DNA of 64,000 nt from a virus (IMGVR_UViG_2799112278_000002:20718-84717), one strand, 5' to 3'; positions 14,578-50,542 are shown, counted from the first letter of the stretch. The notes: generated by a model from the letters alone, not told the origin. Program-made: numbers and translations.

Positions 14578-14985
14578 TTATTTGTCAGTCTCTTCAATCG
14601 CCACTTCTTCGTTTGTTTCTGTTTCAACCGCTTCAGCCAGTGAGCAATATCTCACAGCAATAAGGTTAAACTTATCGCACATCTCAATGGTTTTTTCCAC
14701 CTGTCCAAGCAATGGATGATCTACCGCGCTGCCTTTTGCCAGGCGTTCAGTAATGAATGTCAAGGCTGTACCGCAATCGCGGATAGCTTTGAACCGCGAA
14801 GCATCAATATCTGCTAAACATTCGTTTACTTCTTCATTATTTGGCGTTGCTTGCTCCTTCAGTTGATTCTCCAGCTGTATCGGTTCCGGTTGTAGATCCT
14901 GTTTGCCCTCCAGCCTCGGCTTCTCGCTGTTTCCGCGCCGCCGATTCTTTACCGGTGTTTTTTCCTGACCGTTTTGTTTCAACAC
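14578..14985 (-). CDS. Hypothetical protein
   Basis: GTG start with RBS AGGAG; 135 aa. Confidence 0.6.
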   Translation of the reverse strand: MLKQNGQEKTPVKNRRRGNSEKPRLEGKQDLQPEPIQLENQLKEQATPNNEEVNECLADIDASRFKAIRDCGTALTFITERLAKGSAVDHPLLGQVEKTIEMCDKFNLIAVRYCSLAEAVETETNEEVAIEETDK

Positions 14986-15346
14986 TATTCACTCCTTCTT
15001 CACCACTTAACGTAATACTACCGGGACCCATTCCCCCAGTAGGCAGTCCAAAAGGTTCAATCGCCACCATTTGGCGAGGTTCGGCATCTTTATCAATATG
15101 AACGAAGGGCACAAAACATAGTGCCTGTGACAAGGCATAGCTGCCGTCAAAATTACGCTGTTGCGTCTCCGTCTGAACGAGACAACCTCCCGGAAGATTC
15201 ATAACTTTAGTCGTTTTCATAAACCCTTGCTCATCGCTAGATGCTTTTGCCAGCAATGTAAACGGATTTGCAGCACCGTATAGTTGCAAATCTCGAATCA
15301 CTGAACCGGCTTGATTGACCGTAGATGAGTTAAGCACTCTGTCCAA
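14837..15346 (-). CDS. Conserved phage hypothetical protein
   Basis: TTG start with RBS AGGAG; LLAKASS..QGFMKTTK...GCLVQ..TQQRN.DGSY motif seen in phage proteins. Confidence 0.65.
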   Translation of the reverse strand: MDRVLNSSTVNQAGSVIRDLQLYGAANPFTLLAKASSDEQGFMKTTKVMNLPGGCLVQTETQQRNFDGSYALSQALCFVPFVHIDKDAEPRQMVAIEPFGLPTGGMGPGSITLSGEEGVNSVETKRSGKNTGKESAARKQREAEAGGQTGSTTGTDTAGESTEGASNAK

Positions 15347-15393: not shown

Positions 15394-17622
15394 TTACATA
15401 CCTATTTGGGCCGCGCTTAGCATTTCCCTGACGGCCGGCTGAGTCATGGTTTGTGGGTTGGGACGCTGCTGCACCTGTTGCGGCACCTGCGGTTGGCTTC
15501 CACCGGCAGCACTACTTACCTGCACGGCAGCATCATGGAACATCTGGATGACTTGCTCAGGGGGTATTCCTTGAATCATTTGCCCGACCTGAGCCTGTAT
15601 TTCTGGCGGCATCTGTCCAAATAACATTTTAATCGCCCCATACAATTCTTGCGGCCCCATCTGGCTTATGGCCATTATCACTTGAGGCGGCAACTGCTGA
15701 AGAACAGGAACAAACGGATTCTGTTGCTGTATAGGTAATTCAATGCCGATCCTAGCAAGCATTTGAGCCTGCGCTTCCGGAGGAATGTCCTTTATGTTGA
15801 TATTCCCAGTTAGCTTAATTGGAGTTTGTTGGCCAGCCTCTTGTTGAGCTTGCTGCCTTTCCATCCAGCGCTTCTTAATTTCTTCCCGATTCGGAATATC
15901 GGACATATCAATCAGCATGTCAAATACCATATCACCAGGTATACCAAGCTTAGATATAGCATCAACAAGCGCCCAGAATTGGCTTTGGCGCTGTGTAGCA
16001 GTGCTTGGCGTATCAGACACAACAATATCAAACTCGCCTACACTCAGGTCATTGAGCGTCTTATGTATGACACCCAATATAGGATCTTCTACTTGGACCC
16101 TTTGATTGATCGTAATGAAATCCTGTTCGCCATTATCCCCCACGATTCTAAACGTTTTCTCATCCGTATAGTACTGTTGCACTAACCCCTTCTTGCCACG
16201 CTTGCCCCACATAATGAACAGTATCTGCTGTTTTGCACGGCGAAGATTATCAAAGAGCGCTCCAATATGAGTAACAGCCTGTCTCTGCCGGAGCTCGATC
16301 GCCTTGCCGCTTGCCGATTGCGAGATATCAGTACCAAGCATTCCTTCATTAATGCCCGATATATCCCGTATATCCTGCACAGCTTCCTGCTCAGCTTGAA
16401 ACAGCCCCACCGGTGGATTCGGAGGATTAATACGCTGCAGCTTAGTCATCATCCCCGGCTTCGTTTCGATCATGACACCAGGCATAGAGCCGAATTTGCG
16501 GACGTTCGATTTTTGTTTAGCATCGAAAACGCCCTCTTCATGAATCCAGCCACTATTAGCCTGAGTACCGAGTATATGTAGGGATTGACTACGGCGCTTA
16601 TTTACTTCTCGCTGTGGGTCCTTAATATCACGAACAACACCGGCCGGAATATCACCCTCACCAAGATAATAAGCAATAAAGGGAACATACGGAAACATGC
16701 CATGCTCATAAGGAGATTCCTTTTCTTCAAGAACATGCTCACCTATAAACACGGTGCAATAAGTCTTTGTAATCGGCAAGCTCACCGGCCGTTTTACCTG
16801 ACCGGAAACAAAATGATCAACCGTGATCTCTTCCTTTTTGAGCAAACTTTCTTTCCCATCGATCACGACTAAGTAGTATTGCTGAGATTCAGTACGCCGC
16901 CCCCAGCGTTCAACCAGCCTCAGTTTATGCGTGTTCTTTTGGTACCATAACGGTTCCAAGCCCACTAATGTAATATCTTCAGCCCGGTCATACTCATTCG
17001 TCGTAAAGTCAATGATATCGGCATGCTGCGGGTATACAGCTTTGAGCTCGTCTTTGTCTGCCCATTTACACCGGAAAAGAAATTTAGCGTCGGAATAATC
17101 CGGCGCCACAGATTCAGGATCTGGATATATATCCATAGGGGAAACACGCTTTATCTTGATATCACCATCAAGCGAAGCATAATCCCAGTCATAACATACC
17201 TCGAACCAGCCACGCCCGCAAATCGAACCATCAAGGAATACGGCCGACTCAACACTGGCATAATCGCACTGGTCCATAATGTACTTGGTGACACCCTTGC
17301 GCACTGAACATAGATCAATGTCATTCTTAGTTCTCGGCAAAAACTCCGGTTCAAACCGGTTCAGCCTTTGATAACCAGAAAGCAAATTGATGAGCGGCTT
17401 TATCCGGTTAATCGTCAGCGTCGGCCTGCCTTGTTCATTAAGGATTTGCCGATCTCGATCATCCCACTGTTTGCCGCAGAAAAACTCAATGTCTTCTCTG
17501 GCCTCAACTCGCCAGTCTCTATCCTTATCGACACTCGCTCTAAATTCGTCGCGGTATCGCATAAATTCCGGGCTATGGTCACTTTCTACTGTATCTTCCA
17601 TAGGAACAGCAAACAAACTCAA
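15394..17622 (-). CDS. Portal protein (P22-like)
   Basis: DRDWRVEAREDIEFFCGKQW...GRPTLTINRIKP motif; 742 aa with Gln/Pro-rich tail; RBS GGAGGTGG. Confidence 0.9.
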   Translation of the reverse strand: MSLFAVPMEDTVESDHSPEFMRYRDEFRASVDKDRDWRVEAREDIEFFCGKQWDDRDRQILNEQGRPTLTINRIKPLINLLSGYQRLNRFEPEFLPRTKNDIDLCSVRKGVTKYIMDQCDYASVESAVFLDGSICGRGWFEVCYDWDYASLDGDIKIKRVSPMDIYPDPESVAPDYSDAKFLFRCKWADKDELKAVYPQHADIIDFTTNEYDRAEDITLVGLEPLWYQKNTHKLRLVERWGRRTESQQYYLVVIDGKESLLKKEEITVDHFVSGQVKRPVSLPITKTYCTVFIGEHVLEEKESPYEHGMFPYVPFIAYYLGEGDIPAGVVRDIKDPQREVNKRRSQSLHILGTQANSGWIHEEGVFDAKQKSNVRKFGSMPGVMIETKPGMMTKLQRINPPNPPVGLFQAEQEAVQDIRDISGINEGMLGTDISQSASGKAIELRQRQAVTHIGALFDNLRRAKQQILFIMWGKRGKKGLVQQYYTDEKTFRIVGDNGEQDFITINQRVQVEDPILGVIHKTLNDLSVGEFDIVVSDTPSTATQRQSQFWALVDAISKLGIPGDMVFDMLIDMSDIPNREEIKKRWMERQQAQQEAGQQTPIKLTGNINIKDIPPEAQAQMLARIGIELPIQQQNPFVPVLQQLPPQVIMAISQMGPQELYGAIKMLFGQMPPEIQAQVGQMIQGIPPEQVIQMFHDAAVQVSSAAGGSQPQVPQQVQQRPNPQTMTQPAVREMLSAAQIGM

Positions 17623-18020
17623 CCACCTCCACCTTTACGATTATTGGACCGCAAATACTCCTGAACCAGTTCAGGATTTACAATGCTATGCTTACTGACC
17701 TCCTGCACTTCGTTATCAGAAGCCGCAGGATCGTACTTGCTTTGTATGAAAAGGTCAAGAAGTGTTTTGTACTTATAGGTGGGATGGTCCGGCAGTTTCC
17801 ATGGTGATGTGAAATGCACCAAGCCATCAGATTGAACGGATGTTTGTGCAGCAGGATCTCCAGCCTGTTGCGCTTTATAGAATCCACGGTAATCGTAATG
17901 ATGGTCTGGGCTATCAGGGTTAGGATCAAGTTGAAAGCCAGTCTTTATCGCAATACCATTGATAGTATCACCGTACCATTTCCTAAAAGCCTGTTCTTCT
18001 TCCGGATTTAACGTTACCAC
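17619..18020 (-). CDS. Hypothetical phage protein (DPNPD..HHYDYRG motif)
   Basis: Open frame overlapping the portal start; start probably GTG 18020. Confidence 0.6.
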   Translation of the reverse strand: MVTLNPEEEQAFRKWYGDTINGIAIKTGFQLDPNPDSPDHHYDYRGFYKAQQAGDPAAQTSVQSDGLVHFTSPWKLPDHPTYKYKTLLDLFIQSKYDPAASDNEVQEVSKHSIVNPELVQEYLRSNNRKGGGG

Positions 18021-18037
18021 CCAGACCACCACCCACA

Positions 18038-18068
18038 AAATAAAATAAACGGCCTATTAGCCGTTTTT
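18038..18068 (-). terminator. Intrinsic terminator after spoVS
   Basis: AAACGGC-TAATAG-GCCGTTT followed by ATTTTATTTT. Confidence 0.6.
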
Positions 18069-18317
18069 AACCGTAAAGCGAATTGCAGACCTTTCTTCGC
18101 CGTCAATTTCCGTGTTAGCAAAACCCGGGATACACACCAAGTCAACTCCTTGCGGCGCTAAAAAACCTCGCGCAATGGCAATTGCTTTGACCGCCTGGTT
18201 TACTGCACCAGCACCGATTCCTTGCACCACTGCCTTTCCTTGCCCACGCACTGCACCAGCAATTGCACCAGCTACTTTACCAGGTACTGAATTAGACGAT
18301 ACTTTAATCAATTCCAT
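18057..18317 (-). CDS. spoVS: Stage V sporulation protein S homolog
   Basis: 86 aa; LIKVSSNSVPGKVAGAIAG...GAGAVNQAVKAIAIARGF...IPGF...IDGEERSAI is the SpoVS signature. Confidence 0.92.
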   Translation of the reverse strand: MELIKVSSNSVPGKVAGAIAGAVRGQGKAVVQGIGAGAVNQAVKAIAIARGFLAPQGVDLVCIPGFANTEIDGEERSAIRFTVKNG

Positions 18318-18373
18318 GTTTGTTTCACTCCTTAATTTGCGTTTAAAATATAAACCATCTTTGACGGTCTATT

Positions 18374-18595
18374 TCATGAAAGAAAACCTATTTTGTTTAA
18401 CAGCTTAGGCTCCAGTACACAAACAACATTTACATTTTTCATTTCAAAGCCGGTTTTGCCCTCACAATCCCTAAGCTCAATGAGGCCATCAATTTTATTA
18501 ATAAACTTGTCATATACCGCTTTAGCCTCTTCATCTTTTACATTGGTAAAATACAGTACATGTCCGCTTATTAAATTAACCTCTAAATCTTTCAT
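18374..18595 (-). CDS. Hypothetical protein
   Basis: 73-aa ORF in operon order. Confidence 0.6.
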   Translation of the reverse strand: MKDLEVNLISGHVLYFTNVKDEEAKAVYDKFINKIDGLIELRDCEGKTGFEMKNVNVVCVLEPKLLNKIGFLS

Positions 18596-18976
18596 TTACC
18601 GACTAGCCGGATGCTGGCACTGCAAATGATAACCTTCTAACTTCCAAATTTGACTGGCAGCATCTTCCCTTGCATATGTCTTGCCAATCGCCATATCGAA
18701 GTTGGCCGGATCAACACAACTGCCGGTACCGACGATTTCAAAACCATTCTTAAGGGTTAACAAGCACACGACTGTTTTCTTCCCCATTTTGATATACTCT
18801 TCAGATACAATGGCCTTGTCGATATCTTCCTGAGTTAAACTTACTTTGCTTGCATTTAAACTTACGGCAGCGGCTGGACCATTTGGCCACGTATGACCGC
18901 AGCTGCCGCAGATATTATTTCCATTAGGCCTTCTTTCGGTAGATACCCTAACACCCTGGCACTTTGGACATTTCAT
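18596..18976 (-). CDS. Zn-ribbon fused to N4 Gp49/Sf6 gp66-family domain (Acb4-like candidate sponge)
   Basis: CPKC...CGSC N-terminus; TVVCLLTLKNGFEIVG.GSCVDPANFD..IGK.YA..A...IWKLEGY motif. Confidence 0.8.
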   Translation of the reverse strand: MKCPKCQGVRVSTERRPNGNNICGSCGHTWPNGPAAAVSLNASKVSLTQEDIDKAIVSEEYIKMGKKTVVCLLTLKNGFEIVGTGSCVDPANFDMAIGKTYAREDAASQIWKLEGYHLQCQHPASR

Positions 18977-18990
18977 AGTAATTCCTCCTG

Positions 18991-19500
18991 TCACTTTAAA
19001 AACAACCGCAAATGTTTTTCTACATCCTCAGACGAAAACATAATTCCCTCATCAGAAGTTGGTACTTGCAATTGCTTCTCCATCCGATTAATAATTTTTT
19101 CATCCAGCCGTGAAATGGCTCGATTCCTTTCGCGGCAAACGTCTCCCGTCGTATCAACATTATAAATAACCAGAGTCTTACCAAACTCCCAGGCTATGTG
19201 CCGCCACATCTTACGCCGTTCAACAGTAGTATTAGTTGCATCAATAATGACTGTGTATCCTTGTTTTAGTAGTGTTCTGGCCATGATCTGGGCTGTAGCC
19301 CACACAAACGGTTCAGCTAAATCAATAAACTGATTACCATGCATAGCTAACCTGATCGTGTCTGGACAAACAACCGCAACTTTGGCCGTAAAGCGTGAGC
19401 ATTTTTCGACTAGTGTACTTTTCCCGCTTAACGGTAATCCCACTGTGATAATTAAGTCACCATGATGCAAAGGGTTTCGTGTGTTTCCATCATTTTGCAT
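18991..19500 (-). CDS. P-loop kinase, polynucleotide-kinase-like (AAA_33)
   Basis: GLPLSGKST, PDTIR, IIDATNTTVERR, C.ERN motifs. Confidence 0.8.
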   Translation of the reverse strand: MQNDGNTRNPLHHGDLIITVGLPLSGKSTLVEKCSRFTAKVAVVCPDTIRLAMHGNQFIDLAEPFVWATAQIMARTLLKQGYTVIIDATNTTVERRKMWRHIAWEFGKTLVIYNVDTTGDVCRERNRAISRLDEKIINRMEKQLQVPTSDEGIMFSSEDVEKHLRLFLK

Positions 19501-19520
19501 ATTCATCACCCTTTATTGCG

Positions 19521-19904
19521 TTATACCTTATTCATTCCCTCTACTCCGCGATTCTCACGGCCAATTGTACGTTTGCGCAACCACAACAAAGCCTCTTCCA
19601 GTTTAGTAATGGCTACTGCGTTATCCCGGCAGGCAAACGGCCCCTTCTGGTAATGTTCCAGTCGGCAGATGATCATTGCAATCAAATCCTCATGGTTGAC
19701 ACCATTAACTCCACGTTCTTTAATAGGACCTTCTTGGAAGTGAATCTCCGCTAACGGAGTACCTGAACCATCCTTATTGCTTGCAATTACAGTAAAACAA
19801 TGGGGTGCTCCAAACTGCATCAATTCCGTAGGTTCGTGATAAACCTCAGTGTATTTGCTCGTAAGCAGGTCATGTTGCAGTTTAACATGCTTTTCTTCAG
19901 ACAT
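19521..19904 (-). CDS. tad1: Tad1-family nucleotide-signal sponge (anti-Thoeris/anti-CBASS)
   Basis: HFQEGPIKERGVNGV..EDLI.....RL..YQKGPFACRDNAVAITKLEEALLWL..R...RE.RGVEG matches Tad1 consensus. Confidence 0.85.
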   Translation of the reverse strand: MSEEKHVKLQHDLLTSKYTEVYHEPTELMQFGAPHCFTVIASNKDGSGTPLAEIHFQEGPIKERGVNGVNHEDLIAMIICRLEHYQKGPFACRDNAVAITKLEEALLWLRKRTIGRENRGVEGMNKV

Positions 19905-19956
19905 TCATTTTCGCTCCTTTGTTGAAATATAATAACCGCCCTAATATTGGAGCGGC

Positions 19957-20112
19957 TTAATGTTGTTTAACCCTTTGAGGACAATTTGCTACCTTAGGGC
20001 TCCTATTCACTTTGCACACATGATTATTATCCGGCCATCTTTCTAAGCCGGAATTAGGAGCATACCTTGCACATTGCTCCCTAGTACAACATAACTCCCG
20101 ACGTTTACCCAT
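19957..20112 (-). CDS. Small Cys-rich hypothetical protein (51 aa)
   Basis: ATG 20112 overlapping the upstream stop; MGKRRELCCTREQC... Confidence 0.45.
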   Translation of the reverse strand: MGKRRELCCTREQCARYAPNSGLERWPDNNHVCKVNRSPKVANCPQRVKQH

Positions 20113-20245
20113 CTGCAGCTTGCTCACTTGCCTTACGCTCAGCAGCTTTCTTTGCGCACACCGGGCCAAGCCCTTCTTCTTTCGACTTTTGTGTCTTCAG
20201 CTTCCGGCTGCACATGCCGCAACGCTCATGTAGGATCGGATTCAA
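20105..20245 (-). CDS. Small Zn-finger protein (DUF6011-like), not in ORF track
   Basis: Hand-translated: MNPILHERCGMCSRKLKTQKSKEEGLGPVCAKK...; TTG start with RBS. Confidence 0.6.
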   Translation of the reverse strand: MNPILHERCGMCSRKLKTQKSKEEGLGPVCAKKAAERKASEQAADG

Positions 20246-20723
20246 CTTTCTTCACCTTCTCTTTTTGCGTTATATACCGAACGCCACCCTTAGGTACGCT
20301 TGTCTGGTAGCCATTATCGCCTTTTAAAACATAGCAATCAGAATAATCTTCAACACTTTTGCAATCAAAATCAGTTACATTGTTATCATGCCAGCAGACC
20401 CGAACTGTTAAAATTGGCCTATCGCCAACTTCCCGATATGTTTTTGCATAGATACCAGGCTTAATAGCATAACGTTCACCTTCTACTCCGGTAATGATAT
20501 GGTCATCTGGACTAATAAAAATAGGCCCCTCACGCGTTGCAATATACGGACGAAAACATTTACATCCCCCGCACCCCTGGTTTTCCTGCCGAGAACACCC
20601 ACTAAGATCAACACCAAACTCACTATAACAACCTTCTTCTGGCTTAAAACCATCCTCCATCCCCAGTTGATAAAGTTCTGCATCCACTTCAACCGGAATT
20701 TTGAAAACCTTTGGCACGAACAA
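20226..20723 (-). CDS. Conserved phage protein (KPV.V.A...T.EG...D.II.GV.GE.Y..KP..Y.KTY family) plus C-terminal domain
   Basis: KIPVEVDA, YIATREGPIFISPDDHIITGVEGERYAIKPGIYAKTY motifs. Confidence 0.7.
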   Translation of the reverse strand: MFVPKVFKIPVEVDAELYQLGMEDGFKPEEGCYSEFGVDLSGCSRQENQGCGGCKCFRPYIATREGPIFISPDDHIITGVEGERYAIKPGIYAKTYREVGDRPILTVRVCWHDNNVTDFDCKSVEDYSDCYVLKGDNGYQTSVPKGGVRYITQKEKVKKVESDPT

Positions 20724-20800: not shown

Positions 20801-22198
20801 TTAAACCGCCATCCAGCTGCGCGATTCTGATTCACCGCGGTATTTATCGCGTTTCTCTTTTTCCTTCGGTTTATCCGGAGTCCACGGCCGGGATGTACAT
20901 GCATACATCGTTTCATCAAAGGCATGATCCTCACCATTGGTATCAACCTTTTCAGGATTATGCTTATCATGTGTCAGCATTGGAAATGTCCTGATTGTAT
21001 GGAAGCAGGTTTCAAAGAAAGTAATCCCCGGTATCTGCTTACCCTCTTTATCGGTGTAACCGGTTAGACGGATTTTTACCTGCTCAGCGCCAGCTTCACG
21101 ACCTTTAGTAGAGGGAATAAAAAGAGTCTTGCTCTTTTCAGACAAGACGTTGTTAATTTCCTCTGCGACTGTCGGACCCTCTGTGCCGGTTTTATTCCAA
21201 CAAGCACTATCCAATACTGCATAGGACATAGGCAAATCTTCTTTTTCAGCTTGAGCAATCTTTAATGCAACCTGTTTAGCCGTTTCTTTGGTACCTACAT
21301 TGGCCTTGCCTCCATACCCATATAGCTCACGGTATTTCCACAAGCGACTGTCATAATCAACCGCATACCATCCAACAGAATAAGGATGATAGCTGCCCCA
21401 GTCCATCGCTCGGAATCTTGTCCACTCTCGCGGAATGGCAAAAGGCTTACAAACATGCAGGGAACTTGACCACATATCGTAAAAGCGGCCGCCGGTGATT
21501 CCCCATTCGCCTTCACCATATACCTTGTAGCCTTCTGGATCTTGCAGCTTCCTAAGCTCCATACGCCGGTAATACGCTTCATCAATAAACCGGTTATCCT
21601 TATAAGTGCTGTGATGAGTGAATATATCAGGACTGGTTATATCAAAGTATTTGGCTTTAATCCAATGCGAAGCGCTGACTGGGTTAAAGCTAAACGTCAT
21701 CTGGTAATATAGGTTCGGGTTAAGCAAAATGCCGCGCAGCCGATCATCTAAAATATCAACATCGGACTCATCGAGCTCCGTTGCTTCTTCTACCCATATG
21801 AAAACTAATTTGCCAAATTCAAAGCTTACTGACTTAATTTTTTCACGCTGGCTATCATCTTTCATACCACGAAAAATGATCTTATTACCTGTCCGATTAC
21901 AGACAATTTCCATTGGACTTTGCCGAACGGTCCACAATACAGATGCAAGTTTGCCACAAATCCTGTTGATTGCAGCTTTTAACTCAGCATAGGTACTGTC
22001 CCGGTGTGATTCATCGATCTTCCTGACTACCAGTAAATTCGCACCAGCGTTCTTTGGGTCCATGAGCTTCAGTATATAATCCTGCGCTATATTTACCGAC
22101 TTACCGCTACCGGCGCTGCCTTTAGCGCATCGATACCGGCACCGCGTTCTGTTAAATTCCCGAAATATAGGATTAAACTGAACGACAGTTTCAGCCAT
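20801..22198 (-). CDS. terL: Terminase large subunit (PBSX-like)
   Basis: GSAGSGKS Walker A, WVEEATE Walker B, FNP motif, C-terminal DHAFDE nuclease motif. Confidence 0.93.
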   Translation of the reverse strand: MAETVVQFNPIFREFNRTRCRYRCAKGSAGSGKSVNIAQDYILKLMDPKNAGANLLVVRKIDESHRDSTYAELKAAINRICGKLASVLWTVRQSPMEIVCNRTGNKIIFRGMKDDSQREKIKSVSFEFGKLVFIWVEEATELDESDVDILDDRLRGILLNPNLYYQMTFSFNPVSASHWIKAKYFDITSPDIFTHHSTYKDNRFIDEAYYRRMELRKLQDPEGYKVYGEGEWGITGGRFYDMWSSSLHVCKPFAIPREWTRFRAMDWGSYHPYSVGWYAVDYDSRLWKYRELYGYGGKANVGTKETAKQVALKIAQAEKEDLPMSYAVLDSACWNKTGTEGPTVAEEINNVLSEKSKTLFIPSTKGREAGAEQVKIRLTGYTDKEGKQIPGITFFETCFHTIRTFPMLTHDKHNPEKVDTNGEDHAFDETMYACTSRPWTPDKPKEKEKRDKYRGESESRSWMAV

Positions 22199-22706
22199 CG
22201 TCCCCACCATCGCCGTAATCAATTACGATTCTAAGCTCAGTATCAATAGGGCCACCGCCCTCACCAGTATGTTCGACCTTCTTCTGCTCCTTGTACATGC
22301 CTTTCATTTCAAAAAACAGCTTAATAGCCGAAACATCGCCCATCTTCGCCTTACGAATAAGCGCTTTCCAAACCTCTGCCGTCTCGGCATCCGTATACTG
22401 ATTAATAAGGCTGTTGAGATAAGCAACAAAGTTCGGATCTTGCATCCAAACCCACAAAGTTTTATAGGTAATCCCGGCATCCTTCGCTTTTTGCTCTTTG
22501 GTCCCGCGATTTTCAGGATTAACAAGTAATCGAGCAATCGCTATTTGCTTCGCGTGAGGAACCCATTCATTACTTTTCATTACGTCAACCGGAGTATCCG
22601 CAGCAACCTTATCTGCCGGTTTCTTTCGGGTATTTCTTGTGTTCCCCGGCTTCTTCCGCTTAGCCTTGCTTACCTTTTCTTGACCTTCTACCTTTTGCTT
22701 TGTCAT
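22191..22706 (-). CDS. terS: Terminase small subunit (HTH, phBC6A51-like)
   Basis: HTH AKDAGITYKTLWVW..DP.F, GDVSAIKLFFEMKG, KVEHTGEGGGPI; overlaps the terL start. Confidence 0.75.
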   Translation of the reverse strand: MTKQKVEGQEKVSKAKRKKPGNTRNTRKKPADKVAADTPVDVMKSNEWVPHAKQIAIARLLVNPENRGTKEQKAKDAGITYKTLWVWMQDPNFVAYLNSLINQYTDAETAEVWKALIRKAKMGDVSAIKLFFEMKGMYKEQKKVEHTGEGGGPIDTELRIVIDYGDGGDDG

Positions 22707-23916: not shown

Positions 23917-23990
23917 TGGTGGAGCGACTAGGAGTCGAACCTAGGACTGTCGGGTTACGGCCGAGCGTGATACCATTTCACCATCACTCC
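23917..23990 (-). tRNA. Atypical tRNA with GUA (Tyr) anticodon, short variable loop, encoded CCA
   Basis: Acceptor GGAGTGA/TCGCTCC-A-CCA, D arm GTGA/TCAC, anticodon loop CCGTAAC, T arm CTAGG-TTCGACT-CCTAG. Confidence 0.8.
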
Positions 23991-23993
23991 ATT

Positions 23994-24070
23994 TGGCAGG
24001 GATAACTGGACTCGAACCAGTGCATAAGCGGTTAACAGCCGCTTGCCTTACCTTGCTTGGCTATATCCCT
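23994..24070 (-). tRNA. tRNA-Asn(GUU), encoded CCA
   Basis: Acceptor AGGGATA/TATCCCT-G-CCA, anticodon arm AGCGG-CTGTTAA-CCGCT, T arm ACTGG-TTCGAGT-CCAGT. Confidence 0.92.
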
Positions 24071-30034: not shown

Positions 30035-30093
30035 AGGTCACATTATAGATGTGGCCTTTTTATTCTATGTTTGCTCGAGGGGGTAATCGCAAT

Positions 30094-31332
30094 ATGAGCC
30101 GTACCATTCTCCATATCGATCTAAATAACTTTTACGCCTCCGTCGAATGCCTGTATAACCCAGAAATCCGTGATAAGCCAGTAATCGTATGCGGCGATGC
30201 AGAAGCCAGGCACGGCATTGTCCTTGCCAAAAACGGACCGGCAAAAGCCATGGGAGTTAAAACCGGCGATGTAATTTGGCAGGCCAAACTCAAATGCCCA
30301 GGCTTAATTGCGGTACCGGCAGACTTCCGCAAGTACCTGCGTTTTTCTCGCCTGGCCAAGTCAATATACGCTGACTATACAGACCGCATCGAAGCATTTG
30401 GCATTGATGAGTGTTGGCTGGATATAACAGGTACGGAGCAGATTTTCGGGGATGGTGAAGCTGTGGCAAATAAAATACGACACCGCTTCAAAGAAGAATT
30501 GGGCCTCACGGCTTCAGTCGGTGTCTCCTGGAGCAAGATTTTTTCTAAGCTCGGCAGCGATATGAAAAAACCGGATGCAACTACTGTCATTACTCCGGAG
30601 AACTTTCGTGAAAAAGTATGGCCTCTGCCGGTGGGCGATTTATTATATGTCGGCCGATCCACACGAAAGAAGCTCCAGAACCGTGCGATATTAACCATTG
30701 GCGATTTAGCGAATCGAGACATACATAGCCTACGCCTGCTGCTGGGCGTATGGGGCGAAACACTTTGGCATTTTGCGAACGGACTTGATACGGCGCCAGT
30801 GAAATTTCTTGGCGAAAAAAGCATTGTTAAATCTGTTGGCAACAGCACCACTGCTGTGCGAGATCTACAGAATAATGAAGATGTCAAAATGCTTGTTTTC
30901 GTCTTAGCTGAAAGCGTTGCGGCTCGCCTCCGGGAGCATGGACTAAAATGTACAACTGTATCGATCAGCGTCCGAGACAAAGAACTCAATACGTTTGACC
31001 GTCAGGGTAAGTTATCTATGCCGACGTTTCTTTCTGGGGACATTGCCCAAAAAGCGCTCGATTTGTTTGCTGCAAACTACCGATGGGATAAATCGATCCG
31101 GAGCATTGGTGTTCGGGGAGCCGACCTGGTAACGGCTGACGGCCATATTCAGTTAGACCTATTTAGCAAGGATCAAAGACAAATGGAAAGGTTGGAAGCC
31201 ACGATCGATACAATCCGCAGACGCTTTGGACAATACAGTCTGCAGCGCTGTACAATGCTGTTCGACAAGCGCCTAACTGGCTTTAATCCCCGTGAGGAAC
31301 ATGTTATTCATCCTGTTTCATACTTTAAATAA
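30094..31332 (+). CDS. Y-family DNA polymerase (UmuC/DinB/ImpB-like)
   Basis: HIDLNNFYASVE, IDECWLD, SKLGSDMKKP, QLDLF clamp motif. Confidence 0.92.
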   Translation: MSRTILHIDLNNFYASVECLYNPEIRDKPVIVCGDAEARHGIVLAKNGPAKAMGVKTGDVIWQAKLKCPGLIAVPADFRKYLRFSRLAKSIYADYTDRIEAFGIDECWLDITGTEQIFGDGEAVANKIRHRFKEELGLTASVGVSWSKIFSKLGSDMKKPDATTVITPENFREKVWPLPVGDLLYVGRSTRKKLQNRAILTIGDLANRDIHSLRLLLGVWGETLWHFANGLDTAPVKFLGEKSIVKSVGNSTTAVRDLQNNEDVKMLVFVLAESVAARLREHGLKCTTVSISVRDKELNTFDRQGKLSMPTFLSGDIAQKALDLFAANYRWDKSIRSIGVRGADLVTADGHIQLDLFSKDQRQMERLEATIDTIRRRFGQYSLQRCTMLFDKRLTGFNPREEHVIHPVSYFK

Positions 31333-41102: not shown

Positions 41103-42863
41103 CTATCCTCTCGCATAGCGTTTAGTAACCTTTTCTTGTGGTACGCACAATTCCGGTAAATTGGCTCTTATAAGGGCTTCGGAGAACTGAGGCGGGACCG
41201 CATTTCCGCACCTGGCTACCTGGTCAGCTTTAGAATATTTCTTGCCGTCACAATCCCGGTCAATAATATAGTCTTCAGGGAATCCCTGGGCATTGAACAA
41301 TTCACGCGGTTCTAACATTCGCATGCCAATATCGACTATTTGGTAATTCTCGCCGTGTATGGTGACAAGGCCAAATTTGTCTTTTGTGGTTACTGTGTGC
41401 ATCGGTTCATCTACCGCTTGCCCTTCGCCAGTTCCGTAATATTTCATGAGGAAGGCCCTGACCTCTCCAAAGTGCAACCCGCCGGCTGTTATGGTTTGAA
41501 TTGGTTCCGTTACCTTCTGCCCTATATTTGTGCCTTTCATTTTAACTAAATGGCTTGTGACCAGGGCATTATGATCTACTGTTGTTACTGTAGGTATTGG
41601 CTTATCCATTCCTGAGCCAGGGCCAGTGTAATTGCCGCCGTAATGCTTTGCTAGAAAACTAGCTACCAGGGCGTACCTGGGCGACGCATCAACCACCATA
41701 AGCGGCCTTCCAAGGCTTTGCCCCCGCGTTTCTTTGTCCGATTGTTCGCCGTGGTACTGTATAAGTGTAGGTGTTACAAGAAACTGCTGATTTCCCGTTG
41801 TGATAGTTCTTGTCGGTGTGTCGACGCCACTACCTGGATGGCCCGTTGTATTAACCATAAGAGTTGGTGTAATCAGTAAGTGTTCTGCCTTTGTTACGAT
41901 GGTTGTTAACGGCTCCTCGATGCTGTATTGCATCCTATCAGCGCCAAACCCAGTCTGTCCGATTCTCGCAATGTAGGGGGTAACTATTCCCCATCCATTT
42001 TTTGCGGTTACAGTTTGCAGCGGCTCGTCTATTCTCTGCCCCCGGAAGTCAAGGCCATGATGATTGACTTTGATCACAAAAGGTTCGGGATTTTCTATTA
42101 CGAATTTTTGTATCCCCCTGGCTATCCGCTTCATTGTGTTTTCAGCCAGCGGCTTCTTCCGCTCAAATATCGATGGGCAAGGCAACGACCAGTCTATGCA
42201 CTCTGCCGCCGTCCTCCAAGGCTTCAGTTTGCCGGAAATGACCGCCTCGCTCTTTGGGTCGCCGTGTGTTGGTTTGGGCCAGCTAATCGGCATATTATCG
42301 CGTCTGGCAACTAGAAAGAAGCGTTTGCGAATAGTTGGTGATCCAAAGTCACAGGCTCTAAGTTCTTTCCAGTCTACATGGTAGCCATGCCGTTTTAAGG
42401 CATTAACGAAAGCTTTGAACGTATGGCCTTTTTTATCCGGGTCGGGCATTCCATTTTTCAGCAACGGCCCCCATGTTTTGAACTCTTCCACATTTTCCAG
42501 CATAATTACCCTTGGTTTCACCACTGCCGCCCACCGAACAGCAACCCACGCCAAACCGCGAATATTTTTTTCTACCGGCTTCCCGCCCTTGGCTTTGCTG
42601 AAGTGTTTACAATCTGGGCTAAACCAGCACAATCCAACTGGCCTGCCCCCTGTTACCGTTAAGGGGTTAATATCCCAAACCGATTCAAGGTAATGTTCTG
42701 TACCTGGGTGATTGGCCTTGTGCATCCTTATTGCGGCTATGCTATGGTTTATAGCAACGTCAACCTCTCTGCCTGTAGCCTGCTTTGCTCCCTGGGAATC
42801 TCCGCCGCCGCCGCAAAAGTTACTAACTAGGATTTCTCTAAACAAGTCCTCTAAGGGCTTCAA
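41103..42863 (-). CDS. C5-cytosine DNA methyltransferase
   Basis: NFCGGGG (motif I), SPDCKHFS (IV), MLENV (VI), TIRKRFF (VIII), CGNAVPP (X). Confidence 0.9.
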   Translation of the reverse strand: MKPLEDLFREILVSNFCGGGGDSQGAKQATGREVDVAINHSIAAIRMHKANHPGTEHYLESVWDINPLTVTGGRPVGLCWFSPDCKHFSKAKGGKPVEKNIRGLAWVAVRWAAVVKPRVIMLENVEEFKTWGPLLKNGMPDPDKKGHTFKAFVNALKRHGYHVDWKELRACDFGSPTIRKRFFLVARRDNMPISWPKPTHGDPKSEAVISGKLKPWRTAAECIDWSLPCPSIFERKKPLAENTMKRIARGIQKFVIENPEPFVIKVNHHGLDFRGQRIDEPLQTVTAKNGWGIVTPYIARIGQTGFGADRMQYSIEEPLTTIVTKAEHLLITPTLMVNTTGHPGSGVDTPTRTITTGNQQFLVTPTLIQYHGEQSDKETRGQSLGRPLMVVDASPRYALVASFLAKHYGGNYTGPGSGMDKPIPTVTTVDHNALVTSHLVKMKGTNIGQKVTEPIQTITAGGLHFGEVRAFLMKYYGTGEGQAVDEPMHTVTTKDKFGLVTIHGENYQIVDIGMRMLEPRELFNAQGFPEDYIIDRDCDGKKYSKADQVARCGNAVPPQFSEALIRANLPELCVPQEKVTKRYARG

Positions 42864-48043: not shown

Positions 48044-50542
48044 TTAGCTCACCTCAATAAAATCAAATAGTGTCGGTTCTTCTCTTTCTGCCTCTGCGAC
48101 TTTTAAATAGCCTAACCCATCCCTAAAATAATCCGAATTGAGTTCGCACGCTCGCCCATAACGGCCTTTTTTTATGGCCACCAAAGGGACTGTCATTAAC
48201 CCACCAAAGGGATCGTAGGCAACCTCACCAGGATTGCTATAGCGGTTTATAATCCGCTCCACAATATCAATCTGCAATGGGCATACGTGCATCTGTTGTC
48301 GTTTTCTACTTTGAGAAGTATTAAGAGTCTTCATTCGGTTAATATCATCCCAGACTTCATCAGTCCATGATCCAGGGGCAACTACCATAAAGGATGCAGG
48401 TAGCTTGCCGTTTTCATCTAAACGCTTGGCCAACTCAACATGCTGCTCATAATTGTAAGCATATTCTTTCGAATATTTCCGGTAGACAGCTTGTAAATTT
48501 TCAACCGGGATAGAGGCAAGCTCATCTTTACTCAAAAGACGATTACCACTGGATCGCCAAAACGCATGCGCATCTATCTGCCACTGAGCCCGGGTATACT
48601 CTCCCTTTGTTTTAGCCACCGGCACATCTGCATACGCCTTACCTGTATCAGTTGGCAGCTTCCGAAATAATAAGATATATTCAGGGCAACCAACACCCAT
48701 TTTAGTTCCGTCCTTGCATTGTTCTGTCCAGCCCAAACGATAGGTTTGATTATTCTCCCTAACTACGTCTGTAACCACTGTAATCATGCCAAAATAGTGA
48801 AAACCGTGCTTCATATAGTGATCGATACATAAAGCGTGAAATGGTTCAATTGTGGGCATTCCGGTGCCAGTAGCGTTACCGAACAACACTCGATCTTTTA
48901 CATGGCAGGCAAATACTCTACCTGGCCGCAGCACTCTTAATAAATTGGGAGAAAGGTAATCCATTTGTTCAAAGAATTTTTCCGTACTTTGATTATGACC
49001 AAAATCATTGTAACTAGGCGTATACTCGTAATGATTGCTAAACGGAATCGAAGTAACAATCAGATCGATACTATCTGATTCCATTTGTGCCGTCTCTAAA
49101 ATGCAATCATTGTTTGCTATCGTAAAGTGTTTTCCACTTACCTCCACACGCTCAACTCCTATTGTCCTTGCCATTTTTTCTGCCATTGAGGTACTTGAAA
49201 GGCCGTGCTTCTTGATTATCTCAACCATTTTTTCAAGCATATGATCATGCTGCTTCCATTTCTCCATGAGCGCCTTTAATATTTGTTGCTCACTTTCGGT
49301 GCAAATGATATCAATAATCACTTCGTTAACTTGCAAGTACCTGTAAATACGGTGTATAGCTTGAATGAAATCATTAAACTCATAATCAATGCCCAAGAAG
49401 ACTGCTCTGTGGCAGAACTTTTGGAAGTTACAGCCTTGACCGCTTATCTCTTTTTTTGTCGCTAAATACTGAGTACGACCTTCAGAAAAATCAATTACGT
49501 GCTGCTCACGGAGCTCATACTCTTGGCTACCGTATATCTCCACTACCTCAGGTAGCGCTTTTTTTATTGCATGCCGCTCTGCTTCCAGATCATGCCACAA
49601 GATAAAGTGATCATCCGGACTTGCCTTGATTATTTCGATCATCTTTTCAACTCTGGAATCAATACTATCCCGTTTTTCTTTTGCCGCATCAGCCAGAGAT
49701 ATTGCAGCATCCCGAATTAGTTTCACTTGCCCGTCCCGGTCCACACCAGCCGTTGAGTTATCTACCTGTACCATGTGGTAGTTAATTTTCAGTTGAGGCA
49801 ATGTATATCCGGTATCATCAAACCCTAAGTCAGAAGGATGAGTGATAAATAACGCCCAGCTGCTCATCCAAAGCCAAAATTCATTTTCCTTATGAGGATA
49901 TAATGTTAGGTTATTGGCCTTTGTAGAATCCCTCTGGAAGAAACGAGTAAGAGCTTGTCCGGTATCCATAATCTCCAAATAACCGGCATAATGAATCAGT
50001 TCCTTATACTTATTTGGTGAAGGCGTTGCCGTGCTCACCAGCTTATAAGGCACTCCCCTGAACTTATCTAAGAAGGTTTGATATGTTTTACTACCATAAC
50101 TCCTTAGACATGAAGCTTCATCAAGGCTTGCCGCGGTAAAATACAGAGGGTCTATATCGCCATCCCGTACCCGCTCATAATTAGTGATGATAATATCCGT
50201 CTTAGCTGCCTCAGCCTCTGCCATTGTACGGCAGTATGCAGGCTTTTCCATTCCCAACAACTCAACTGCGTCCCGGGTAAATTCTTGCTTCACACCAAGC
50301 GGCAGTACAATTAATGCCTTACCGCCTTCCCGCGCAATGACAAGCCTAGACCATTCCAATTCCTGCACAGTCTTACCTAATCCAAATGCCTCAAATAGAG
50401 CTCTTCTACCACCTTTAACAGCCCACTTCACAGCTGCCCTTTGATGAGGCTTCAAAGCAGGATGTATATCGTTTTCATTAACCATAAAACCGGTATCTTC
50501 AGCGAGAATAATTTTATTAGCTAAAAAATCGTTATAGTCCAA
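48044..50542 (-). CDS. SNF2-like helicase fused to N4/N6 amino-methyltransferase
   Basis: EAFGLGKT, LDEAS, STATP helicase motifs; VTSIPF and DPFGGLMT methyltransferase motifs. Confidence 0.85.
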   Translation of the reverse strand: MDYNDFLANKIILAEDTGFMVNENDIHPALKPHQRAAVKWAVKGGRRALFEAFGLGKTVQELEWSRLVIAREGGKALIVLPLGVKQEFTRDAVELLGMEKPAYCRTMAEAEAAKTDIIITNYERVRDGDIDPLYFTAASLDEASCLRSYGSKTYQTFLDKFRGVPYKLVSTATPSPNKYKELIHYAGYLEIMDTGQALTRFFQRDSTKANNLTLYPHKENEFWLWMSSWALFITHPSDLGFDDTGYTLPQLKINYHMVQVDNSTAGVDRDGQVKLIRDAAISLADAAKEKRDSIDSRVEKMIEIIKASPDDHFILWHDLEAERHAIKKALPEVVEIYGSQEYELREQHVIDFSEGRTQYLATKKEISGQGCNFQKFCHRAVFLGIDYEFNDFIQAIHRIYRYLQVNEVIIDIICTESEQQILKALMEKWKQHDHMLEKMVEIIKKHGLSSTSMAEKMARTIGVERVEVSGKHFTIANNDCILETAQMESDSIDLIVTSIPFSNHYEYTPSYNDFGHNQSTEKFFEQMDYLSPNLLRVLRPGRVFACHVKDRVLFGNATGTGMPTIEPFHALCIDHYMKHGFHYFGMITVVTDVVRENNQTYRLGWTEQCKDGTKMGVGCPEYILLFRKLPTDTGKAYADVPVAKTKGEYTRAQWQIDAHAFWRSSGNRLLSKDELASIPVENLQAVYRKYSKEYAYNYEQHVELAKRLDENGKLPASFMVVAPGSWTDEVWDDINRMKTLNTSQSRKRQQMHVCPLQIDIVERIINRYSNPGEVAYDPFGGLMTVPLVAIKKGRYGRACELNSDYFRDGLGYLKVAEAEREEPTLFDFIEVS

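Follow-up and report, generated by a model that had tools for sequence, protein, structure and literature searches.

The 64,000-nt stretch of DNA analysed here (IMGVR_UViG_2799112278_000002:20718-84717, referred to as the window; all coordinates are counted in it) carries genes of three families of immune-signal sponges, Tad1, Acb4 and Lockin, within 6 kb and on both sides of the portal gene of a prophage. We propose that the terL-portal and portal-scaffold junctions of this ~80-kb prophage probably form a gene-acquisition hot spot dominated by anti-signalling counter-defence. This proposal draws on sequence family membership, conservation of ligand contacts, presence and absence among relatives, and gene fusions. 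The window lies within contig C1 of a 4.6-Mb bacterial genome, whose owner is a spore-forming Negativicutes-type bacterium. Nearly all of it is a phage genome on the minus strand, with replication genes, two orphan DNA methyltransferases, terS, terL, portal, scaffold, capsid and tail genes.

Three sponge families surround the portal gene

A sequence-only reading of the window had described an island of ~3.1 kb and nine genes at 17619-20723, between terL and portal. The gap between the two genes is indeed 3,178 bp long and holds nine genes, all on the minus strand. Eight are clear open reading frames (ORFs) and the ninth is a conserved Cys-rich ORF of 51 amino acids (aa). In order of transcription, the genes are g1, g2, g2b, g3 (Tad1), g4 (kinase), g5 (Acb4 family), g6, g7 (SpoVS) and g8. 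The domains named in that reading (Tad1, Gp49/66, a PNK-like kinase and SpoVS) were all recovered, as were five small proteins without an assigned function: a PGDYG-like protein of 165 aa, a DUF6011 protein of 46 aa, the Cys-rich protein, and proteins of 73 and 139 aa. The Lockin gene directly follows portal and lies beyond the interval originally described. With Acb4 and Lockin adding to Tad1, the multi-sponge counter-defence reading stands on firmer ground than when it was first put forward. The sponge genes and the two genes that delimit the gap are:

20801-22222, minus strand: terL, large terminase subunit, 473 aa, the upstream boundary of the island (Pfam Terminase_3, 1.1e-45; orthologues in all related loci)
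19521-19904, minus strand: g3, Tad1-family sponge, 127 aa (PDB 8KBB, 9.1e-38; phrog_2428, 8e-45)
18596-18994, minus strand: g5, N-terminal CxxC...CxxC zinc ribbon followed by a PF13876 domain, 132 aa, likely ATG start at 18976 (Phage_gp49_66, 3e-25; Zn_Ribbon_TF, 9e-6)
15394-17622, minus strand: portal, P22-type, 742 aa (P22_portal, 5.4e-141)
14837-15346, minus strand: Lockin-family sponge (residues 6-91) with a ~75-aa low-complexity C-terminal tail, 169 aa (PDB 9P8L, 3.3e-24)

Residues 5-126 of g3 match CmTad1 (8KBB) in a phmmer search against the PDB, with ~55% identity over 122 residues as counted from the alignment. The same search returned CbTad1 with an E-value of 4e-14, and the Pfam Tad1 hairpin model scored 21 bits, under its 27-bit cut-off. 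Studied Tad1 hexamers bind 1''-2'/1''-3' gcADPR and the CBASS trinucleotides cA3/cAAG. Pocket residues were compared in alignments numbered against Li et al. (bioRxiv 10.1101/2023.11.15.567273). R88 and T95, which line the cyclic-trinucleotide pocket of CmTad1, are identical in g3. In the pocket for gcADPR and cyclic dinucleotides, N92, R109 and R113 of CbTad1 are identical and F82 is replaced by Y. At the hexamer interface, E99, W103 and K106 are identical, and Q98E and M102L are conservative changes. Judged by these matches, g3 is a true member of the Tad1 family. It shares with CmTad1 (8KBB-8KBD) and CbTad1 (7UAV/8KBE-H) the full-length family match, the trinucleotide residues, the gcADPR pocket and most of the hexamer interface, but it is a new sequence and is encoded within the late packaging operon of a Negativicutes prophage.

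The Gp49/66 domain that the sequence-only reading had placed in the island is itself a sponge domain, as PF13876 has been equated with the Acb4 family (Chang et al., bioRxiv 10.1101/2024.12.30.630793). In g5 this domain spans residues 53-125 and scores 89 bits against a cut-off of 27. Studied Acb4 tetramers bind cGAMP-type dinucleotides, and all eight Acb4 homologues assayed bound 3'3'-cGAMP (Chang et al., bioRxiv 10.1101/2024.12.30.630793). When g5 is compared with the Acb4 structure of Bacillus phage SPO1 (PDB 9E4W), the overall similarity is modest (E 1.4e-5), and six of the ten SPO1 ligand contacts are identical in an ungapped alignment (K36, F48, E49, F62, I66 and K81). These include the guanine-reading triad K36/F48/E49. 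In contrast to SPO1 Acb4, g5 has an N-terminal four-cysteine zinc ribbon, and the word zinc does not occur in the Acb4 paper. The four remaining contacts, at backbone or adenine-pocket positions, are altered (V56C, Y57V, N63D and T70Y), so the ligand of g5 may not be 3'3'-cGAMP, a point that we return to below.

Residues 6-91 of the third sponge align with residues 8-93 of the LockinA chain in 9P8L, at ~55% identity over the ~90-residue domain. Lockin sequesters 3'cADPR or His-ADPR, studied members are hexameric, and no isolate phage with a full sequence is known to carry a member of the family (Tal et al., bioRxiv 10.1101/2025.07.12.664507). All six LockinA contacts to 3'cADPR are kept in the window protein, at K34, K44, T45, T46, K47 and Q58; five are identical (LockinA K35, K45, T47, K48 and Q59) and the sixth is a change of S46 to T. 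A local Pfam scan of the window protein gave no match; for the sister-phage orthologue (L003), a precomputed match to PF26760 is on record. The window protein differs from LockinA in its extra C-terminal tail and in the position of its gene directly after portal.

These assignments suggest a mechanism. Tad1, the Acb4-family protein and Lockin would form homo-oligomeric sponges that stoichiometrically sequester immune second messengers, so that Thoeris (ThsA) and CBASS effectors would never be activated. The island genes would be co-transcribed with the late operon through leaky terminators. We infer ligand binding, oligomeric state and this co-transcription from sequence. The accompanying cargo would comprise a host-derived SpoVS for host or sporulation control, a polynucleotide kinase (PNK)-like kinase with a possible role in RNA-end repair, and the five small proteins.

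The junctions beside portal carry different cargo in related phages

We compared the locus with 17 related loci, part of which came from a portal search within the same class. The terL-portal gap measures 12 bp in four of them. In six it spans 187-364 bp and in five 423-956 bp, and the remaining two have gaps of 2.07-2.78 kb. These distances support the earlier premise that the two packaging genes are usually adjacent. An interval invariant among relatives was the outcome that the sequence-only reading had named as speaking against it, and the opposite was seen. At the DNA level, no close phage was found in INPHARED, where terL alone matches (~67%).

The nearest relative is a sister phage (G401, locus L004; also known as a Logan contig) that is complete in IMG/VR, with 81.7 kb and terminal repeats. 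Its portal is 85% identical to that of the window and its DNA ~80% identical. The sister phage has the island and the three sponges, including Lockin, in common with the window, and the two differ by clean single-gene insertions and deletions. It has neither the kinase gene nor g6. The kinase segment of the window (18997-19534, 538 bp) is a clean insertion with no counterpart in the sister phage, which in turn has an SprT-like gene after portal and, immediately 3' of SpoVS, a gene for a DUF3307 membrane protein, at the place of the hairpin that the window has at 18047-18066.

Other close relatives carry different sets. In G402 (L005; 98% complete, portal 81% identical), SpoVS stands alone at the terL-portal junction, and neither Tad1 nor Acb4 nor Lockin was found anywhere in the genome. 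The gap of L006 holds the Cys-rich gene and SpoVS only. G052 (L032) has SpoVS and five unknown genes ahead of portal. After portal, in the interval before scaffold, it has (L032:2768-3925, minus strand) an SprT-like gene of 141 aa and a PhoH-like ATPase adjoining a 223-aa PGDYG-like-Tad1 fusion, whose Tad1 domain is 79% identical to that of the window. The SprT-like gene occupies the same place in the sister phage as in G052 and is absent from the window.

Among the prophages from the portal search, four loci have the 12-bp gap, four have one gene for a Prp-like peptidase and one has an HNH endonuclease gene. Another junction (L034:5971-6801, minus strand) holds a 71-aa ORF and a 203-aa acetyltransferase (phrog_1758) in a layout that resembles a toxin-antitoxin pair. 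The junction of G004 (L027:6217-6786, minus strand) is filled by a single 189-aa gene with a domain of yet another sponge family, Tad2 (PF11195, 5.5e-24). This Tad2 protein has an extra N-terminal domain of ~90 aa that matches the N-terminal part of phrog_9467, and the Acb4 domain of the window matches the C-terminal part of the same profile. The ~90-aa domain may be another domain common to sponge fusions.

Given this variation in cargo across relatives, accessory genes have a genuine hot spot in the two junctions beside portal, and anti-signalling sponges have landed in it repeatedly and independently.

A PGDYG-like domain is recurrently fused to sponges

The first gene of the island encodes a protein that the comparison also ties to sponges:

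20226-20723, minus strand: g1, PGDYG-like domain (residues 1-104, with a Cys-rich insert) and a lineage-specific C-terminal part of ~60 aa, 165 aa in total, or 163 aa from the likely GTG start at 20717 (phrog_419 N-terminal part, 1e-11)

The N-terminal part of g1 follows the pattern KKPV.I.A...GMEDG...P.I.TLEG...PGDYIITGV.GERYPCKP.IF..TYE. PF14083 (PGDYG) scores 16.3 bits on g1, under its 27-bit threshold, and all 14 close homologues match the family weakly (best 5e-5). An AlphaFold2 model of the full-length protein from 14 sequences had a pLDDT of 64 and matched nothing in Foldseek. A model of the N-terminal domain alone from a 93-sequence alignment reached a pLDDT of 87.6 and is mostly beta. 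In Foldseek, the g1 model matches entries named PGDYG protein in BFVD with a probability of 1.00, together with many uncharacterised viral look-alikes. Against the PDB, the N-terminal domain found no match with either Foldseek (best E about 1) or VIA-align (48,161 chains, best Z 2.9), and neither g1 alone nor a profile of its homologues matched a PDB sequence. The literature searched contains no mention of PGDYG or PF14083. g1 is a distant relative of PGDYG and is best called PGDYG-like. Tad2 was considered as an identity for g1, as phrog_419 looked like a Tad2-Acb4 fusion, and was rejected, since g1 has no PF11195 match and a different set of motifs.

The family is very large. A g1 profile search of 1.84 billion representatives gave 20,281 matches at E <= 1e-3, most of them stand-alone proteins of 60-125 aa. 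Fusions to Tad1 occur in L032 and in the representative P0099, and one of 14 long viral ORFs with a PGDYG-like domain has an Acb2/Tad1-hairpin match, a possible further case. Fusions to Tad2 were found in 3 of 80 viral loci. A PGDYG-like-Acb4 fusion is implied indirectly by the 300-position phrog_419 profile, which g1 matches at positions 41-128 and g5 at 218-270. Weaker evidence suggests a fusion to Sequestin: in the ESM Atlas, a 332-member cluster whose proteins all carry PF21825 (Sequestin) matches the predicted g1 structure with a TM of 0.62 over 83 residues. Among 132 ORFs sampled next to PGDYG-like genes there were two Sequestins and one Tad2; these counts, like those of the fusions, come without a background rate. 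As a separate observation, the giant proteins P0016 (3,743 aa) and P0019 (1,612 aa) contain 30 and 15 stretches, respectively, that match the C-terminal half of the domain, which may thus be a small beta module in its own right.

Given these recurrent fusions to known sponge families, it is possible, and we suggest it tentatively, that the PGDYG-like family is anti-signalling, either by sequestering a nucleotide immune signal as a new kind of sponge or as an obligate sponge helper. Several results weigh on the other side. In this very large family, fused members make up a small minority, and the domain is also fused to the non-sponge partners DUF551 and QueE. No Pfam sponge domain was present in any of the 36 longer top representatives of g1, the P0099 Tad1 fusion being seen by local phmmer only, and a word-indexed database held no longer fused relatives of g1.

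Sequestin (PF21825) itself came to light in proteins that join it to Tad2 or Acb4 (Tal et al., bioRxiv 10.1101/2025.07.12.664507). Like Sequestin, the PGDYG-like domain is small, phage-specific, mostly stand-alone and repeatedly fused to unrelated sponge families. Unlike Sequestin, it has a different, mostly beta fold with no solved relative, it also has non-sponge partners, and its fusions are rare within the family. The fusion pattern of g1 is therefore a lead of the Sequestin kind, not a demonstration. The earlier proposal that the unknown genes of the island are candidates for new inhibitors thus gains support for the PGDYG-like gene only; for the 73-aa, 139-aa, 51-aa and DUF6011 proteins, there is no evidence either way.

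Other cargo and the layout of the operon

The remaining genes and the terminator-like hairpins of the region are:

20105-20245, minus strand: g2, DUF6011 protein, 46 aa (PF19474, 1.8e-11, 43.8 bits against a cut-off of 26.6; orthologue in L004)
19957-20112, minus strand: g2b, Cys-rich protein, 51 aa (conserved in L004 and L006, with changes mostly at the third codon position)
19957-19934, minus strand: terminator-like hairpin between g2b and Tad1 (stem-loop on the coding strand)
18991-19509, minus strand: g4, stand-alone PNK-like P-loop kinase, 172 aa (AAA_33, 7.9e-20; phrog_505 polynucleotide kinase, 1e-18)
18374-18595, minus strand: g6, 73 aa, missing in the sister phage (unmatched in Pfam, PHROG, PADLOC and NCBIfam)
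18057-18317, minus strand: g7, phage SpoVS, 86 aa (PF04232, 4e-35, 119.9 bits against 24, residues 2-83)
18066-18047, minus strand: hairpin with a T-run, resembling an intrinsic terminator, directly 3' of SpoVS (stem-loop on the coding strand)
17619-18038, minus strand: g8, orphan, 139 aa, likely 133 aa from GTG 18020, with a 4-nt overlap with the portal start (orthologue in the sister phage)
15389-15371, minus strand: terminator-like hairpin between portal and the Lockin gene (stem-loop on the coding strand)

SpoVS is the sole cargo gene common to all four close relatives (L004, L005, L006 and L032), and it fits the label of host control that the sequence-only reading had given to part of the island. 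The host has a spoVS copy on another contig (L002:1380-1670, G000 contig C10) with 73% DNA identity to the phage copy over 146 bases, a likeness consistent with a host origin of the phage gene.

The kinase g4, with an AAA_33 score of 72 bits, weakly matches structures of the Pnkp kinase domain, PSTK and Pnkp1. Its scores with the Pnkp equivalogs are far below their thresholds (36 bits against 750 for TIGR04075 and 23 against 503 for TIGR01663), and the phosphatase domain is absent. By its sequence matches, g4 resembles the kinase domain of PNK but is not a Pnkp. Genes for two tRNAs, Tyr(GTA) and Asn(GTT), were found at 23917-24070 on the minus strand, just upstream of the terS/terL operon (ARAGORN and Rfam), and an Rfam scan of the whole window found nothing besides them. 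The tRNA genes and the PNK-like kinase could relate to tRNA-targeting defences.

Of the small proteins, g2b matched no family, and we regard it as a real gene because two relatives keep it, most of the changes between the copies being synonymous and at the third codon position. An Atlas search with g6 returned unnamed Bacillota clusters alone, with scores < 0.9. For g8, no match was found among families, structures, phage databases or the Atlas, PDB matches were at chance level, and the sole orthologue found is that of the sister phage.

The G+C content of the island is no different from that of its flanks. The internal hairpins or terminators that had been reported were confirmed in part: terminator-like stem-loops precede Tad1 and follow SpoVS, and the region has 14 stem-loops in total compared with 9.0 +/- 2.4 in shuffled sequences. 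The hairpin before Tad1 is maintained in L006 through a different complementary stem.

Elsewhere in the window, the two orphan methyltransferases probably serve the same phage against restriction. One combines an SNF2-related domain with an N6/N4 methylase (48044-50542, minus strand), and the other is a C5 cytosine methylase (41103-42863, minus strand). A gene for a Y-family (ImpB/UmuC-type) DNA polymerase (30049-31332, plus strand) runs opposite to nearly all other large phage ORFs.

Counter-defence and its alternatives

In 40 genomes of the host's order, ThsB-type TIR domains are present in nine and a CD-NTase (SMODS) in three, which means that targets exist in the host range. A number of points weigh against our proposal. 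Searches of the lysogen itself found neither SMODS nor TIR_2 nor ThsB_TIR genes. SpoVS, the kinase and several of the small genes have no demonstrated link to defence, and the word island may overstate the functional coherence of the locus. The sponge roles of the window proteins are read from their sequences, and in the Acb4-family protein four of ten ligand contacts are altered, as described above. Finally, sponge genes are usually early or middle genes. The Tad1 homologue of Bacillus phage MY192, a siphovirus, lies in the early/middle region, which makes the late-operon position of Tad1 in the window unusual, and a position in the late packaging operon raises doubt on whether enough protein would be made in time.

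One answer to the question of timing is that the late position is itself the adaptation. In this model, also put forward in the sequence-only reading, the island would be expressed late so that sponge levels are highest when TIR or CBASS sensors are set off by terminase, portal and capsid proteins. The genes do lie inside the packaging/head operon, on the same strand and with short gaps and overlaps, and we found no convincing sigma-70-like promoter inside the island. Also in its favour, Tal et al. (bioRxiv 10.1101/2025.07.12.664507) measured the 3'cADPR signal in lysates collected 105 min into an SBSphiJ infection. The terminator-like hairpins ahead of both Tad1 and Lockin speak against the model, as does the early or middle position of Tad1 in other phages. 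Moreover, the HNH endonuclease, Prp-like peptidase and acetyltransferase genes at the same site in relatives suggest a site that is permissive for insertion, not a choice of timing. We therefore consider the timing model doubtful.

Alternatively, the sponges could be made late, put into the capsid and delivered with the DNA, so that they are present in the next host from the first minute. The precedent is phiKZ gp184 (PDB 8Y6V chain I), which matches the C-terminal half of g3 with an E-value of 3.9e-10. gp184 is a minor protein of the inner capsid surface (PMC11297242), and its liberated C-terminus has been described as injected (bioRxiv 10.1101/2025.11.23.690004). It shares with Tad1 the type of C-terminal domain and is encoded by a virion-associated gene. 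In the window, the sponge genes sit among head genes and Lockin has its ~75-aa extra tail, and in one relative Tad1 is fused to an N-terminal domain within the head module. Tad1 homologues are also labelled 'structural protein' in the Bacillus myophages Bcp1, BCP8-2, BC-T25, McCartney, QCM8 and MarvelLand, although this is an annotation label. However, gp184 has a capsid-anchoring N-terminal part and is cleaved by a head protease, whereas g3 is a bare 127-aa protein. The Acb4-like protein of the window likewise has no extra anchoring domain, and the stretch from portal to capsid showed no gene for a head protease. Packaging of the sponges thus appears unlikely.

Two further explanations fare worse. 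That the proteins are accessory factors of head assembly or of the portal, similar to sponges in fold alone and with no anti-defence role, would agree with their position among terL, portal and scaffold and with the overlap of g8 and the portal start codon; it is very improbable, as relatives with 76-82% identical head-gene DNA lack these genes, except SpoVS, and as conservation extends beyond the fold to the ligand-contact residues. That the locus is instead a prophage-encoded defence or superinfection exclusion system protecting the lysogen is barely credible: defence morons are common at variable sites in prophages and one relative has the toxin-antitoxin-like acetyltransferase pair at this junction, but the PADLOC defence models matched none of ten proteins (the nine of the gap and Lockin), except for a chance-level AbiEi match on SpoVS (E 0.005), and three of the genes belong to families that were experimentally shown to inhibit defence.

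Precedent and implications

A hot spot of anti-signalling genes has been described in Migulavirinae/N4-like phages (Fedorova et al., bioRxiv 10.64898/2026.06.04.730250). As in our locus, several adjacent non-essential genes directed against nucleotide-signalling immunity are found there, at a site that varies among related phages. In contrast, the locus described here belongs to another phage lineage and host phylum, it lies between packaging and head genes instead of in an early or replication region, and it combines three stand-alone sponges of different families with non-defence genes. Anti-defence islands, anti-signalling hot spots and the Tad1, Acb4 and Lockin families are thus already known. 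Four features of the locus are notable: the stacking of three sponge families around portal, the architecture of a zinc ribbon joined to Acb4, the tailed Lockin and the pattern of PGDYG-like fusions.

Taken together, we propose that the portal gene of this prophage is surrounded by three unrelated sponge families, two of which, Tad1 and Lockin, would both target Thoeris signals. Such stacking shows how strongly TIR and CBASS signalling shapes the phages of spore-forming Negativicutes, hosts with almost no studied phages. The terL-portal junction provides a comparative slot, the varied cargo of which can be mined for inhibitors, and the PGDYG-like family, with its tens of thousands of members, becomes a testable candidate for an anti-signalling domain. 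The position in the late operon, together with the precedent of phiKZ gp184, raises the question of whether sponges may be delivered inside virions.

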